In this document: positions 21,900-30,815 of the stretch, piece by piece
Layout of the letters: the number at the start of each line of letters is the position of its first letter
How positions within the stretch are numbered: the first letter of the stretch is position 1
From: an uncultured Erysipelotrichaceae bacterium
GTDB lineage: Bacteria > Bacillota_I > Bacilli_A > RF39 > UBA660
Direction: 5' to 3'
Length of the DNA stretch: 64,000 nt
NCBI GenBank assembly: GCA_948442015.1
Contig: CAOJRP010000001.1
Coordinates: 29,617-93,616, forward strand
Position numbers and translations under genes: made by a program
Notes under the pieces: generated by a model
Database searches by the model: none
Seen by the model: the letters and a program-made list of their open reading frames with translations, nothing else
Told to the model about the DNA's origin: nothing

Positions 21900-24218
21900 T
21901 TACTCATCTTCTGGTTTTATATAAATATATTTCTTTTCCTCACCTAATGTATTATCTTCTATAGAAGTTAATGGGTATGTTATAATTCCAATTTCATCTG
22001 TTGTTTGTTTATCACCATCAACAGCTGGATTAGTAGTTTCTTCTTGTTCTTCTTTTGTTTCTTCAGTAGTAGAAGTATCTTTTAAAAGTGGCGGATTACT
22101 ATCTTCTTCTAAAGAAACAGTTGGTATTTCAGTTGTTTCCTCTTCCTTTAATGGAGTATCAGAAACATCTGGTGTTGGTGCATCTTCAGTAGAACCACTT
22201 GTAACTGTTGTAATATTAATTTTAATATTTATACTATTTTCTCCAGCAATAGAAGTTATTTTAAGTTCAATATTATTTGTTCCACTAACAATTGTAGTTG
22301 TTGTATCAATTGTTGCATCTAATCCAGTAACAGAAATAATACTTTGGAAATTACTATCATTTATAATCGCATCAATAATAGTTATATCACTAATATTTTG
22401 TTCTAATTGTGTCTTTAATCTTTGTACTTTCCATTGTAATGGAAGAGATTTTTGTATTTCATAACTTTCACCATTTATTATTATGTCATATAATCTCGAA
22501 GTAATTTGTATTGCATGATTACTTTCATCATATCTAAAGTAATCACTATTAATCTTCTTAGCCAAATCTTTAACATTATCAATAGTACCATCAAATTGTG
22601 ACTCTAAATAATTTTTAATTGCTACATACTCATTTGATGTACTCTTATACATATAAGCATCTAAATATTTAAAGAATAAAGCATTTATTTCTCCACTACT
22701 TAAGTTTTCATTAAAGAAGTAGAAATTTTTAAGATTATTAGTCATGTTTTTATTATTATAATAAGTCTTAACATAACTTGTAAAATTAGCATCAATAGTA
22801 ATTACATCATGAGTATTTGTATCACTATAACTTAATCCTTCGATAGATGCATATTCACGAGGATTTTCTCTTTTAGCTTCTTCTAAATGTTCTCTTATAA
22901 AAATACTTATTTCTGATGAGTTAACATTACTACTATAAGAATCTAGTAAAGTAATAATTCTCTCTTCTATTGTTTCTGTATTTAATTTCGAAAGTTTAAT
23001 TTTATTTCCTTCAATATAATCTCTTAAATCAAAGTAACGTTTAAATTCGGTCTTAAATGTATCAGTAATAATAAGTTCATTGTATGAAGTATCACTACCA
23101 ATAGTTATACCACTAATTCTAGTTAAATCATTAACAGTTATATTATCTCTATCAGCAGTAAATATAGATATCATATATTCTTCCAATAGATTATCTATTG
23201 TCTTAGTATCATTTAAATAATCTTTTAATGCTTCATTGAAACTCACTTCATTATTATGGATATATTCTTTTAAATACTTAATAAAGCGATTATAAATAGC
23301 TGAATTATTAAATTTTGATAAATAGATACTATTATTTTGTAAAAAATCTTTTCTTAAATCAAAGTAACGTTTAAATTCAGTCTTAAATTCTTCATTAATA
23401 ACTAGCCTATTATATTTAACTAAGTTACTATTTAAAGTAATTCCACTTATCTTTTCTAGGTCATTAACATTTATATTTGTACTAGGAAATATTGAATTTA
23501 AATATTCATCTAATAAACTATCCAAAGTATTTGGAGCAATTAAATAATCTTTTAACGCCTCATTAAAGCTTGTTTCATTATTATGAATATACTCTTTTAA
23601 AAGTTTAACAAAACGATTATAAATATCATTTTGATTACTTTTTATTAAATAAATGTTATTATCTTCTAATTTATCTATTTTATCTTCTAAGTATTTATCA
23701 GTATTAACACTAAATAATCCTGTAGCATATTCATACTCTCTTTCATTAGTGAATTGTTGTTTAACATTGATTGATAAGTTAATAGCATCACCTTTTATTA
23801 CTTTATCAACTGGACAAGTTAAATTAACAATAATACTATTTCCCATCCCTGTTAATGTATTAAAAGAAATACTACTAGCATCAATATTGGCATTACCGTC
23901 AAAGAATGTACTATAGCAACTGGAATCAGGTAAAATTAAGGAATAAGTATCAACTTCATTCTCTTTCATTGAAGAACTACGAACAAAGTTAAACTTATAA
24001 TGAATATTTGTTGCAGTTGAATCATCTTGAACTCCCATACTAGATGATGTGTCGTCAATATAATATCCACCCATTTGATTAAACTTAGCTTTGTACAATA
24101 AAGCATTTTCTTCTTCCTTATAATACTTAGCATCAGATGGAGTATAAGTAAAACTAGCTAATAGACATATAACAAGTAAAGTATATAAAATAAGTTTTAT
24201 ACGTGTTTTATTTTTCAT
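21900..24218 (-). CDS. Large secreted repeat protein (772 aa) with an N-terminal signal peptide, internal ~100-aa duplication and an acidic Thr/Glu-rich C-terminus. Putative SipW-cognate substrate.
   Basis: Signal peptide MKNKTRIKLILYTLLVICLLASFTYTPSDAKYY. Duplicated blocks ...IYNRF(V/I)K(L/Y)LKEYIHNNE(T/V)SFNEALKDYL... and FKTEFKRYFDLR. No LPXTG. Confidence 0.6.
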   Translation of the reverse strand: MKNKTRIKLILYTLLVICLLASFTYTPSDAKYYKEEENALLYKAKFNQMGGYYIDDTSSSMGVQDDSTATNIHYKFNFVRSSSMKENEVDTYSLILPDSSCYSTFFDGNANIDASSISFNTLTGMGNSIIVNLTCPVDKVIKGDAINLSINVKQQFTNEREYEYATGLFSVNTDKYLEDKIDKLEDNNIYLIKSNQNDIYNRFVKLLKEYIHNNETSFNEALKDYLIAPNTLDSLLDEYLNSIFPSTNINVNDLEKISGITLNSNLVKYNRLVINEEFKTEFKRYFDLRKDFLQNNSIYLSKFNNSAIYNRFIKYLKEYIHNNEVSFNEALKDYLNDTKTIDNLLEEYMISIFTADRDNITVNDLTRISGITIGSDTSYNELIITDTFKTEFKRYFDLRDYIEGNKIKLSKLNTETIEERIITLLDSYSSNVNSSEISIFIREHLEEAKRENPREYASIEGLSYSDTNTHDVITIDANFTSYVKTYYNNKNMTNNLKNFYFFNENLSSGEINALFFKYLDAYMYKSTSNEYVAIKNYLESQFDGTIDNVKDLAKKINSDYFRYDESNHAIQITSRLYDIIINGESYEIQKSLPLQWKVQRLKTQLEQNISDITIIDAIINDSNFQSIISVTGLDATIDTTTTIVSGTNNIELKITSIAGENSINIKINITTVTSGSTEDAPTPDVSDTPLKEEETTEIPTVSLEEDSNPPLLKDTSTTEETKEEQEETTNPAVDGDKQTTDEIGIITYPLTSIEDNTLGEEKKYIYIKPEDE

Positions 24219-24229
24219 ATTATCCCTCC

Positions 24230-28759: not shown

Positions 28760-28784
28760 AATTTATCACCCCTTTTTTCTTTTT

Positions 28785-30815
28785 TTAAATTTTAAATGTA
28801 AATGGTCTTCCCTGTTCCAAATTTTTTAAATCCTCTTTTACTAAAGCATTAGCTAATTCTTGAACCATATTTGATTTTATTACATCAATATATCTTAATA
28901 AATTTAATGTTTCGTCACTTTTTATTCCTTTACTAGCAAATTGTTCTAGTATTTGTTTCTTTTTAAATAAGTTCTTATATAGCTCTGTATCAAACGTATT
29001 TAATACTGTTTCTAAATCTTTTTGTTGATCTTCTATTAAAGGTTTTGCACTTTTGTCTTCGAGTAACAAAACATTATCATCATCTAGTTTCTCTTCTTCT
29101 TTTTCTTCTTCATTATTTATAATTTCTACTTGTTCTAAGCTGCTTTCTTCTTCATCCATAAATTCGTATTCTTCATTATTAAAAGAAGATGGATCAAAGT
29201 CAACTGTTAAATCATCAGGTTCTTCATTAACTTCTTCTACTGTACCAGTAATTTTCTTGATAATTTGCATTCCGCAAGTTCTACAAGTAAATAATCCTTC
29301 ATCACCTAAGACATCTTCTGGTGTATCAGGAAGATCATGTGGTACATATTCAGTTAGTGATTCATCAATATAATCATCATCTGGACATTTGTGATATATT
29401 ACAGCACAATTTTCTTTGTCAGTTTTATTAAGTGATACTGGTGCTTGCTCCTCTGGATGATGTTCATGTGGTGGTTTTTCAATTTCCTTGATAATTTCCA
29501 TACCACAAGTATTACATCTAAATAATCCTTCATCACCTAAGACATCTTCTGGTGTATCAGGAAGATCATGTGGTACATATTCAGTTAATGACTCATCAAT
29601 ATAATCATCATCTGGACACTTAAAGTAAATTGCTTGACAATTTTCTTCATCAGTTGCATTAAGTGATACTGGTGCTTGTTTTATACAATTATGTTGATGT
29701 TCTTCTTCTATCTTTTTTGTTACCTTATGACCGCAATTAGGACAAGTCTTCGTTTCAGTACCATCGCCATTATCTATAAACTCTCCAAATGGATGAAGTT
29801 GTTTATCTTCTTTTCCATCTTCTCTAAAGCGATGTTCATAATCATCATTTATGCTTAACCATTCTCCCCAAACATAAGGCTTTTTTTCTATGTGATTACA
29901 ATTACCACATGTTCTTGATTTTGTATCATCGCCATTATCAGACCATTCACCATAAGATGGATGAAGTTGCTTTTCTTCTTTTCCATCATCACGATAACGA
30001 TGTTCATAATCATCATCTAATGGTAACCATGGACCCCATTTATGTTTATCTTTTTGAGGTTTTTTCTTATCATCGTCCTTATCTTTGTCTTTTTCATCAT
30101 CATTATTGTTCTCGTTCCCATTATCTGAAGTATTATCACCATAACTAGGACTATTAGTATCAGGAACACTATTTTTTAATGCTGTATCATCTAGAACTTT
30201 AGCATAATCATCATGAACACTATTTTGTAAATTTCTAGCATACTCTCTTAGACACTCTAGTAAAGTTGTATTTTGTATTGCTAATCCTCCAAATTCTTCC
30301 TCACTATTAACGATATTAAAGTAAACTGCAAGTCTTGCTCTTGAAGTTAAAGAAGAGTCATATCCTACATCATTTAAAGCATCAATAATAGAATTTGTTT
30401 TAAAATCTTTAATAATTGGAATTATTAAATCGCCAACATAAATATTATTTATGTTTTCTTCTTTTAAAGATTTATCCTTGGAAGAATTACTAACTGGTTC
30501 TTTAAACTCTTTTTCTTCCTTCACTTCATCGGCTTTATCTTCTTTTTTTATTTTTTCTTTATTTTCTTTTTCTTCTTTTTCTTTTTTTATTACTACTTCA
30601 TCATCTTTAGAAGTATCTTTATATTCTTCATTTATTTCTTTAGGTAATTCTTCACCATCGATACCTTTTTCTAATTGTTTATCTTCATATCTAGACACCA
30701 TTTCATGTACGCCTAAACCAGCAACACTAATTCCCAAAGCAGTAGCTAAGCCTATAACCCATTTTCTGAAAAAGAATGGTTTTTTCTTATTTTTCTCTTT
30801 ATTATTTCTAGCCAT
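28785..30815 (-). CDS. Membrane-anchored acidic protein (676 aa) with four tandem Cys/His zinc-ribbon-like repeats. First gene of the fibre locus.
   Basis: N-terminal TM (WVIGLATALGISVAGLGV). Two HRYRDDGKEEKQLHP...TCGNCNH-type repeats, then two near-identical ~60-aa repeats NCxxIYxKCPDDDYIDESLTEYVPHDLPDTPEDVLGDEGLFxCxTCGM. The matching DNA repeats lie at about 29270-29400 and 29500-29640. RBS AAGGTGAG. Confidence 0.6.
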   Translation of the reverse strand: MARNNKEKNKKKPFFFRKWVIGLATALGISVAGLGVHEMVSRYEDKQLEKGIDGEELPKEINEEYKDTSKDDEVVIKKEKEEKENKEKIKKEDKADEVKEEKEFKEPVSNSSKDKSLKEENINNIYVGDLIIPIIKDFKTNSIIDALNDVGYDSSLTSRARLAVYFNIVNSEEEFGGLAIQNTTLLECLREYARNLQNSVHDDYAKVLDDTALKNSVPDTNSPSYGDNTSDNGNENNNDDEKDKDKDDDKKKPQKDKHKWGPWLPLDDDYEHRYRDDGKEEKQLHPSYGEWSDNGDDTKSRTCGNCNHIEKKPYVWGEWLSINDDYEHRFREDGKEDKQLHPFGEFIDNGDGTETKTCPNCGHKVTKKIEEEHQHNCIKQAPVSLNATDEENCQAIYFKCPDDDYIDESLTEYVPHDLPDTPEDVLGDEGLFRCNTCGMEIIKEIEKPPHEHHPEEQAPVSLNKTDKENCAVIYHKCPDDDYIDESLTEYVPHDLPDTPEDVLGDEGLFTCRTCGMQIIKKITGTVEEVNEEPDDLTVDFDPSSFNNEEYEFMDEEESSLEQVEIINNEEEKEEEKLDDDNVLLLEDKSAKPLIEDQQKDLETVLNTFDTELYKNLFKKKQILEQFASKGIKSDETLNLLRYIDVIKSNMVQELANALVKEDLKNLEQGRPFTFKI

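Follow-up and report, generated by a model that had tools for sequence, protein, structure and literature searches.

An operon with two SipW-type signal peptidases, conserved in uncultured gut bacteria and predicted to build a TasA-superfamily surface fibre

In model Firmicutes, biofilms have a protein backbone of TasA-type fibres, relatives of which are now emerging across archaea and bacteria. The general kind, a fibre of the TasA superfamily with a dedicated type I signal peptidase (SPase I), minor subunits, a tip and an anchor, is already known in Bacillus, in Clostridium perfringens and in several archaea. A dedicated SPase I accompanied by a tip protein and by a jelly-roll protein anchored in the membrane has precedents (PMC11821415; PMC12337348; bioRxiv 10.64898/2026.01.04.697558), as has SipW-coupled donor-strand assembly at the membrane; in the model for BsaA of C. 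perfringens, the growing oligomer inserts its free N-terminal strand into a subunit that has just been exported and is still tethered to the membrane, and SipW then cleaves that subunit (PMC11580942). Here, we describe the gene content, homologies, motifs, conservation and expression signals of a seven-gene locus with two SipW-type signal peptidases, found in a 64,000-nucleotide (nt) stretch of DNA from an uncultured Erysipelotrichaceae bacterium (contig CAOJRP010000001.1; this stretch is hereafter the window). None of the seven proteins is named in any of our sources. A first-pass annotation, made from the DNA letters alone, had read the locus as a TasA/BsaA-like fibre system with two SipW-type peptidases, and this remains the best-supported reading after our tests, given the class of the peptidases, the signal common to three of the products, the structural match of the putative major subunit and the presence of sipW beside the major-subunit gene in every related locus. 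We put at about 0.62 the probability that the locus is one operon building a sortase-independent fibre of the TasA superfamily (or a pilus-like matrix fibre) on the cell surface.

The features of the locus are collected in Table 1; coordinates are positions in the window, and all genes of the locus lie on the minus strand. Seven genes occupy the interval between 30897 and 21865 in the order Z-sipW1-a-B-sipW2-c-R and encode products of 676, 206, 196, 629, 197, 180 and 772 amino acids (aa), respectively, an order and sizes that agree with the first-pass annotation, as does the intrinsic terminator after R. The promoter lies 55 nt 5' of the Z start codon and overlaps the last codons of the upstream gene, which codes for a Wzx-type flippase. 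Perfect matches to the promoter consensus occur only twice in the window, against 0.21 expected; the other (TTGACA-N18-TATAAT, 4879-4908, minus strand) is found 5' of an open reading frame (ORF) at 4075-4857. Intergenic gaps are of 0-25 nt, except for 170 nt before gene a and 97 nt after it. Since the seven genes lie between a perfect promoter and an intrinsic terminator and are otherwise separated by short gaps, we consider the locus to be one operon.

The two peptidases score 94.6 (SipW1) and 96.6 bits (SipW2) against TIGR02228, for which the cut-off is 51.85, and are thus both signal peptidases I of the endoplasmic reticulum (ER)/archaeal type. Against NF046067, the equivalog model for the Bacillus SipW, they reach 103.6 and 98.0 bits, under the cut-off of 190 bits, and are therefore SipW-like proteins rather than SipW orthologues. 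The serine of the SGSME motif, the histidine of THR and the aspartate of GDxN are intact in both (Ser57, His96 and Asp115 in SipW1), and the three columns are kept in 33/33 orthologues of SipW1 and in 33/33 of SipW2. Each peptidase has a membrane helix at both ends and a cytoplasmic tail with EFLEYKR in SipW1 and RFLEYRE in SipW2; the SGSME motif and the C-terminal helix followed by a charged tail had been correctly recognized in the first-pass annotation. Its description of sipW as duplicated, however, does not hold in the sense of a local event. SipW1 proteins are 64% identical to one another and SipW2 proteins 50%, whereas identity between the two groups is 29%; together with the orthologous positions of the two genes across species, in a cassette conserved over dozens of them, these values indicate two ancient clades and no recent or local duplication.

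To survey related loci, one genome per GTDB species was scanned with the motif [VI][AS][GN]TYAKYT of protein a alone. The scan returned 79 distinct loci, or 80 species-level loci with the window species' own added; ORFs were called in 83 fetched loci and searched with the window proteins. An a-family gene has a sipW beside it in 83/83 loci, and at least two sipW genes are present in 72/83 (67 with two and five with three). The order W-a-B-W-c (W, either sipW) is seen in about 40 loci, in 36 of them as the full (Z)-W-a-B-W-c-R, with the order Z-W1-a-B-W2-c-R found in about 35 species; an R-like gene follows c in 38 loci and a Z-like gene directly precedes sipW1 in 26. The remaining loci, mostly labelled Clostridia, are simpler and consist of W, a, a gene for a protein of about 200 aa (b), W, a gene for a c-like protein of about 170 aa and then at least one gene for a large protein. 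All carriers are uncultured metagenome-assembled genomes (MAGs) that bear the label Tenericutes, Bacilli, Clostridia or Erysipelotrichaceae and stem from the guts of humans, mice, rabbits and ruminants; no cultured organism was among the carriers found by the motif scan. The family itself is much larger. A word-index search gave 77 homologues of protein a. Among 1.84 billion cluster representatives, its profile retrieved 9,243 at E ≤ 1e-3 and 754 at the stricter E ≤ 1e-30; for c, the family numbers 260 proteins.

Proteins a, c and R begin with a signal of one class, in which a membrane helix is followed by [S/T]-x-[A/S]-[K/R]-[Y/F] (...GTYAKYTS in a, ...VITYSKYIS in c, ...SHAKYIK in R), and their counterparts in the simpler loci bear the same signal. 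A hydrophobic run followed by [AGS][KR][YF] was found in 91/99 a, 38/38 c and 29/38 R proteins, as opposed to 13/376 control ORFs from the same loci, and the N-terminal signal that the first-pass annotation had noticed in the 196-, 180- and 772-aa proteins is thus shared far beyond chance. A conserved strand-like segment lies past the signal, DTAxVAKW in a and ARVAKF in c. Moreover, a and c are homologous (profile-profile probability 95.4%, E = 2e-8), the c-like proteins of the simpler loci forming a bridge (97.8% to a, 97.5% to c), and have in common both the N-terminal strand segment and a C-terminal ATQ motif. SipW1 and SipW2 probably cleave the signal peptides of their neighbours.

Gene a has the expression signals of a gene for an abundant protein. 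Its Shine-Dalgarno (SD) sequence pairs with -17.3 kcal/mol (the anti-SD sequence used for all pairing energies is an assumed one), in agreement with the claim that gene a has the strongest ribosome-binding site (RBS) in the window. The stem-loop 3' of the gene has 18+6 bp, and 0/200 shuffled sequences were as stable. A hairpin had been proposed on each side of the gene; the downstream one stands, whereas the upstream one is not significant (z = -1.4). In all 42 related loci with a B or b gene, a stem-loop is found 3' of the a-family gene (e.g. L005, L028 and L046), with a median of -28.7 kcal/mol and a median z of -5.5, in very AT-rich DNA. Across loci, long intergenic regions flank gene a alone (medians of 105 and 96 nt), the other junctions having medians of 8-16 nt. 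Long flanks and a stem-loop are the pattern expected for a major-subunit gene followed by genes for low-copy assembly proteins and minor subunits, and the stem-loop may act as an attenuator or as a stabiliser of the mRNA, giving an excess of a over the products of the downstream genes. The higher GC content of gene a, also pointed out in the first-pass annotation, is real (33.8% against 26.8%); GC at third codon positions, however, is 0.11, as low as in the neighbouring genes, and the excess therefore comes from a composition rich in Thr, Ala, Ser and Asp and not from codon usage.

In the 196-aa product, a signal helix and a predicted SipW site (...NTYA↓KYTS; the arrow marks cleavage) precede the conserved strand segment of the N-terminus, DTAKVAKWDIEV, and the core, a beta-sandwich in which IAPG, WRWAY, DTxLG and TATQ occur as motifs. 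AlphaFold2 (AF2), run on the alignment of the a family, gave a beta-sandwich with a mean predicted local distance difference test (pLDDT) score of 80.7, in which residues 24-34, just past the signal helix, are of low confidence. The best structural match of the model is the TasA fibre, as the first reading of the locus would have it; further matches include the donor-strand pilins CsuA/B, PapG-pilin and FimG, as well as EcpD and the archaeal bundling pilin AbpA, and in a Foldseek search the first rank was taken by the cannula protein CanA, with a non-significant E of 0.01. When a profile of 149 a sequences was compared with the sequences of the PDB at E ≤ 10, the sole match was AbpX (9rhp), again not significant (E = 0.28); the alignment covers a PG-x8-N-x-[SG] stretch, which TasA also contains. 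In three members of the family (P0243, P0280 and P0294; 564-803 aa) a full a-like domain with its signal is followed by a GDSL lipase/esterase domain, and the a module may also display enzymes on the fibre or the cell surface. In addition, seven of 51 a-family members gave weak matches to NF053514 of NCBIfam ('BLB8/JUQZ-1 family protein'; best E = 0.032, residues 1-52), possibly another family that uses a similar signal.

B differs from a, c and R and is not a subunit of the substrate type. It lacks the [A/S]KY site in the window, the strict signal (hydrophobic run plus [AGS][KR][YF]) being present in only 8/42 of all B-family proteins, and its C-terminal a-like domain has no N-terminal strand. 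In the 629-aa protein an N-terminal membrane helix is followed by a lipobox-like LITSC, by FWGKIG, by immunoglobulin (Ig)-like stalk domains of the Big_2 type (30.9 bits, above the Pfam cut-off of 22.8, as claimed previously) and by the a-like domain. A comparison of the a family with the C-termini of B proteins by hhalign gave a probability of 96.3% (E = 1.8e-9) over residues 62-191 of a only; the last 160 or so residues of B thus correspond to the sandwich core of a, its conserved N-terminal segment being absent. For the short b proteins, the probability is 99.1% against a and 98.9% against the C-terminus of B. B is therefore a b protein whose membrane helix and a-like domain are separated by inserted Ig-like domains; orthologues of B range from 629 to 1,542 aa. 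Past the membrane helix, at residues 20-45 of B629, a lipobox-like LITSC(SC)TS is found in 34/39 B orthologues and F-x-G-[KR]-I-G in 39/39 long B proteins; the GKIG motif also occurs in 12/27 short b proteins. From its sequence, B looks like the membrane anchor of the fibre. That B is a lipoprotein and nothing else was considered and rejected, the lipobox-like Cys being missing in 5/39 orthologues and in all short b proteins; membrane anchoring is therefore the safer statement.

From these observations we infer a scheme for cleavage, polymerisation and polarity and for the role of each protein and peptidase. All structural proteins would be exported by Sec with an N-terminal membrane helix. 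The class signal of a, c and R (helix-[S/T]-x-[A/S]↓K-[Y/F]) would be cut by the membrane-bound SipW1 and SipW2, and the cut would free the conserved N-terminal strand, which would then enter the beta-sandwich of the next subunit by donor-strand complementation, a196 polymerising in this way into the shaft. B629, with an acceptor domain, no donor strand and no cleavage site, would remain membrane-bound, through its helix or as a lipoprotein, and, on an Ig-like stalk of variable length, would take the last free strand and so anchor the proximal end of the fibre. c180, with a complete Ig fold and a donor strand, and R772 would start or cap the distal end, in the manner of TapA/TasA and TafC/Tafi; as alternative initiators or tips they would fill the groove of the first a subunit. 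The abundance of a among the subunits would result from the strong RBS of its gene and the stem-loop that follows it. The peptidases would split the work: our best guess, for which the basis is only gene adjacency and translational coupling, is that SipW1 most likely serves the bulk subunit and SipW2, coupled to c, most likely the low-copy initiator and tip proteins c and R. The proposed polarity follows from the BsaA model (PMC11580942) and mirrors the tip, the pilins and the helix-plus-jelly-roll anchor of Tafi (PMC11821415; PMC12337348); donor-strand pairing and the role of B as acceptor are predicted from the conserved N-terminal segment of a and c and from the B/b domain that lacks it.

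A bolder version, which is speculative and which we hold to be improbable, makes the SipW paralogues themselves the assembly machine. Each cleavage, by freeing the N-terminal strand of a tethered subunit, would be a step of polymerisation; SipW2 in complex with the signal-anchor of c would act in initiation and SipW1 in elongation, and the uncleavable B would end growth and anchor the fibre. If this were true, signal peptidases would have a function equivalent to that of sortases or ushers, and this in a very large family of surface fibres of gut bacteria that lacks annotation.

Several observations weigh against the fibre scheme or parts of it. Sequence similarity to TasA, camelysin, TIGR04088 or any PDB chain is nowhere significant, and every relative comes from uncultured MAGs. 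The cleavage motifs of a, c and R are alike, and the sequences assign no substrate to either peptidase. TasA is not among the structural matches of the c model; its resemblance to complete Ig domains, on the other hand, favours the scheme, since the like is reported for TapA (PMC10151520). Finally, the signal-anchor of c is conserved far beyond what a disposable signal peptide would need, and fits a retained membrane partner equally well or better. In c180 a hyper-conserved N-terminal tail and membrane helix precede VTYS↓RFIT, an ARPAKF strand, a Cys pair, a complete Ig-like sandwich and a C-terminal YAATQ; of the 29 columns of the family that are invariant or nearly so, 20 lie within residues 1-37 (MKGLLHSKRFKKNLxKWLFMY...TVITYSKY), that is, in the cytoplasmic tail and membrane helix, where the AF2 model is also at its most confident (pLDDT of 93-95). 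Such a distribution suggests a lasting interaction, and c180 could be a stoichiometric membrane partner or pseudo-substrate of SipW2, comparable to DUF5305/TafG, which are accessory to archaeal fibres, or to the non-catalytic subunits of the eukaryotic signal peptidase, with the rest of the fibre model left standing. sipW2 and c abut (0 nt in the window, a median of 8 nt over 36 loci), the basic tail of c (SKRFKKNLxKW) could, as we see it, pair with an acidic peptidase tail (EEEKEFLEY), and accessory proteins beside a fibre SPase I are known (PMC11821415; bioRxiv 10.64898/2026.01.04.697558). However, c is homologous to a and keeps the -3/-1 motif T-Y-S↓K-Y, the ARVAKF strand and the C-terminal ATQ, and the known initiator TapA is also co-expressed with sipW, the genes overlapping (PMC10151520). 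We regard the partner role as a serious alternative for c, although one with the odds clearly against it, and retain c as a predicted minor subunit and initiator. One member of the c family (P0123) carries a precomputed Pfam tag, PF28357.1, that had no match in the copy of Pfam searched; a recent entry may cover the c family.

Profile searches were extensive and negative. Among a, c, B, R and Z, no protein matched TasA/camelysin, TIGR04088, TapA or any other family at threshold in Pfam or NCBIfam, with the exception of Big_2 in B, so that the family-level similarity expected by the first-pass annotation did not appear; with hidden Markov model (HMM) searches of a, c, B and R against both collections up to E = 10, again no match to TasA, M73 or TIGR04088 was obtained. 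With 51 a-family members at E ≤ 1, Peptidase_M73 was not among the 25 widest-matching Pfam families listed out of 57. TIGR04088 had 0 matches in the window proteins and only marginal ones in two of the 51 a-family members (best E = 0.039); the signal motif of the present proteins is related to that class but distinct from it. Alignment by hhalign of the family profiles with the TasA sequence (an exact match to PDB 8aur, residues 28-261) was negative, with a probability of about 1%, and searches of the PDB sequences with the single proteins and a 51-sequence profile gave nothing relevant. Matches to Reelin and BNR were discarded as short 'SxDxGxTW' matches of the Asp-box-like type.

These negatives bear on a second alternative, that the products do not polymerise and are secreted or surface proteins, for example adhesins or a coat on the adjacent polysaccharide, that share a pair of peptidases and form no donor-strand fibre. 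Sequence methods link no member of the set to a proven fibre protein, the fold matches lie within the range of generic Ig-like domains, the locus is directly downstream of a polysaccharide-synthesis cluster, and the fusions of a to GDSL esterases suggest that the domain can be a plain surface module. What this alternative hardly explains without strand exchange is the strict post-cleavage N-terminal segment of a, c and R set beside a B/b domain that lacks exactly that segment. The best structural matches, moreover, are subunits of strand-donation fibres (TasA, CanA, CsuA/B and AbpA), and gene a has the expression signals of a major subunit. We therefore find the absence of a fibre distinctly unlikely, and continue with the fibre as the preferred reading.

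R772 carries the signal ...PSDA↓KYYKEE, a beta-rich N-terminal domain, two helical repeats of about 110 aa and an acidic tail rich in Thr and Glu. The repeats, for which the product had been called a repeat protein, are two clear copies by direct local alignment (z = 43); they were not detected by Tandem Repeats Finder. R resembles a only in the signal and in the AKY segment (89% over 35 columns). In simpler loci of the Clostridia type, the gene after the c-like gene encodes a giant protein of 2,683-2,837 aa with the same membrane helix and [A/S]KY signal. The first product of the operon, Z, was originally described as a zinc-ribbon protein; the CxxC motifs are present, but matches to zinc-ribbon families are below threshold, and the alignment of the Z family revealed no clear function. 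A lipobox-like motif is found in 8/28 Z proteins. LPxTG was absent from the last 60 residues of all 245 a, B, c, R and Z proteins (0/245).

Directly upstream of the operon, on the minus strand at 30877-39000, lies the polysaccharide-synthesis cluster, which includes a Wzx-type flippase, a DUF1919 protein, a multi-helix Wzy-like protein, two GT4 and one GT2 glycosyltransferases. Farther away are the genes for MutS, topoisomerase subunits, IleRS, XseA and a SpoIVB-type peptidase, and the surroundings are thus chromosomal. The SpoIVB-type peptidase (Peptidase_S55, E = 1e-69; 38295-39272) points to a spore-forming host lineage; the closest reference genome, 93% identical on a, bears the label 'uncultured Tenericutes' despite the presence of this peptidase in the window. 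TasA was first described as associated with the spore coat, and the host lineage has sporulation genes, which raises the question of whether the operon builds a spore-associated structure, a coat component or an appendage. The SpoIVB-type gene is 8 kb off, and PDB entries 5of1 and 5of2 name TasA 'spore coat-associated protein N'. The promoter, however, is a perfect consensus for the housekeeping sigma-70/sigma-A and not of a sporulation-sigma type, the neighbours are polysaccharide-export and housekeeping genes, many carriers are Tenericutes or Bacilli gut MAGs, and no sporulation genes are conserved in the flanks; a link to the spore is accordingly very improbable.

Just past the operon terminator are a fragment of a DDE transposase (94 aa; 21363-21647) and, on the opposite strand, lexA (20686-21348), an arrangement repeated in four metagenomic contigs with an identical operon. 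The proximity of these genes, together with weak PHROG matches of the Big_2 part to a tail protein and of the S24 fold to the CI repressor, could be taken to mean that the locus is a prophage, a plasmid or another mobile module, or that the second sipW is a redundant housekeeping peptidase there by chance. Protein a, however, had no tblastn match in 50,697 phage and 72,556 plasmid records, the PHROG matches are to generic domains only and housekeeping genes of the chromosome flank the locus; at the sensitivity of these searches, an origin from a phage or plasmid is excluded. Chance placement of the second sipW, moreover, is ruled out by the orthology of both sipW positions in dozens of species. 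We give explanations of this kind almost no weight, and the fibre operon remains our reading of the locus.

Table 1. Features of the two-SipW operon in the 64,000-nt window (positions of the window; last row, positions within the related loci named)
Feature	Position	Strand	Remarks
Operon promoter	30870..30897	-	TTGACA-16 nt-TATAAT, 12/12 consensus match
Z676	28785..30815	-	four CxxC motifs; 231-nt tandem duplication
sipW1	28139..28759	-	ER/archaeal-type signal peptidase I, TIGR02228
Shine-Dalgarno of gene a, GGGGGAGGTGAG	27972..27983	-	strongest SD pairing among 55 long window ORFs
a196, predicted major fibre subunit	27378..27968	-	signal helix, N-terminal strand segment, beta-sandwich core
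Stem-loop 3' of gene a, without T tract	27309..27363	-	-26 kcal/mol, z = -5.1
B629, predicted membrane- or lipid-anchored fibre base	25391..27280	-	N-terminal helix, Big_2, C-terminal a-like domain
B C-terminal a-like domain (~residues 468-625), predicted strand acceptor	25406..25879	-	hhalign
sipW2	24773..25366	-	ER/archaeal-type signal peptidase I, TIGR02228; directly abuts gene c
c180, minor subunit related to a; predicted TapA-like initiator or SipW2 partner	24230..24772	-	
R772, large secreted protein, predicted tip or adhesin component	21900..24218	-	
Intrinsic terminator	21865..21889	-	11-bp stem + T tract, -15.5 kcal/mol, z = -3.4
Giant-protein genes of simpler loci	L044:12473-20587, L050:12471-20585, L051:12520-20571, L076:4355-12868		candidate giant tip adhesin

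The locus points to a large branch that is invisible to annotation, its thousands of cluster representatives having no Pfam or NCBIfam model. Should the products form surface fibres whose Ig-like stalks vary and whose tip proteins are large, they would be candidate factors of colonisation and aggregation in the gut microbiota. The conserved pair of peptidases would, moreover, offer a clean system in which to ask whether cleavage of the signal peptide is coupled to donor-strand polymerisation, a question that the work on BsaA raised and did not settle.

No two-sipW locus was found in our search of the literature, and the sequence family of a, the [A/S]-K-[Y/F] class signal, the conserved seven-gene cassette and the obligatory pair of peptidases are undescribed in the literature searched. 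To that extent the claim that the arrangement is new is upheld; the logic of the locus, however, is known from the archaeal Tafi and AbpX loci, and the arrangement is therefore less unprecedented than first thought. Chaperone-usher pili (Fim, Pap and Csu) are structures of the Gram-negative outer membrane that need a chaperone and an usher, neither of which is present here, and the likeness is one of analogy and not of membership. With tapA-sipW-tasA of B. subtilis the locus shares a dedicated ER/archaeal-type signal peptidase adjoining its substrates. The TasA signal has a small-x-aromatic motif just past the hydrophobic core, ...GTWA↓AFND (a mature N-terminus that we confirmed against PDB 8aur), as compared with ...TYA↓KYTS here; in the present family, however, a Lys or Arg is invariant at +1, and sequence homology to TasA is not detectable. 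The probable counterpart of c is TapA, a low-copy partner that is tightly co-expressed with the peptidase and combines a donor N-terminus with a complete Ig fold (PMC10151520; PMC9674648). B. subtilis has one peptidase, whereas here there are two paralogues as well as the predicted membrane-anchored acceptor B, the tip-like R and the Cys-rich surface protein Z; in addition, eps and tapA are not adjacent in B. subtilis, whereas here the genes for matrix polysaccharide and fibre adjoin.

The sipW-bsaA-bsaB-bsaC operon of C. perfringens, compared here by its published description only (PMC11580942), is likewise a Firmicute operon in which sipW precedes the genes for a TasA-like subunit that polymerises, for another TasA-like protein and for a large accessory protein; it has, however, a single sipW, and BsaA forms intermolecular isopeptide bonds and is exported with the involvement of type IV pilus genes. 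Haloarchaeal Tafi combine a dedicated SPase I with major and minor strand-donating pilins, a tip and a one-helix plus jelly-roll anchor, TafF, which resembles B/b (PMC11821415; PMC12337348); the Tafi proteins (TafA/E, TafC, TafF, TafD and TafG) differ in being archaeal and Tat-exported, with one peptidase and a DUF5305 accessory protein, and belong to unrelated sequence families. AbpX, AbpA and CanA, finally, are donor-strand jelly-roll subunits often encoded beside a TIGR02228 peptidase and genes for minor subunits, tip and anchor (bioRxiv 10.64898/2026.01.04.697558; PMC9245690). Bacterial AbpX loci have SLH or LPXTG anchors and a ten-helix peptidase, whereas the present operon combines a membrane-helix or lipobox anchor with two peptidases of two helices each.

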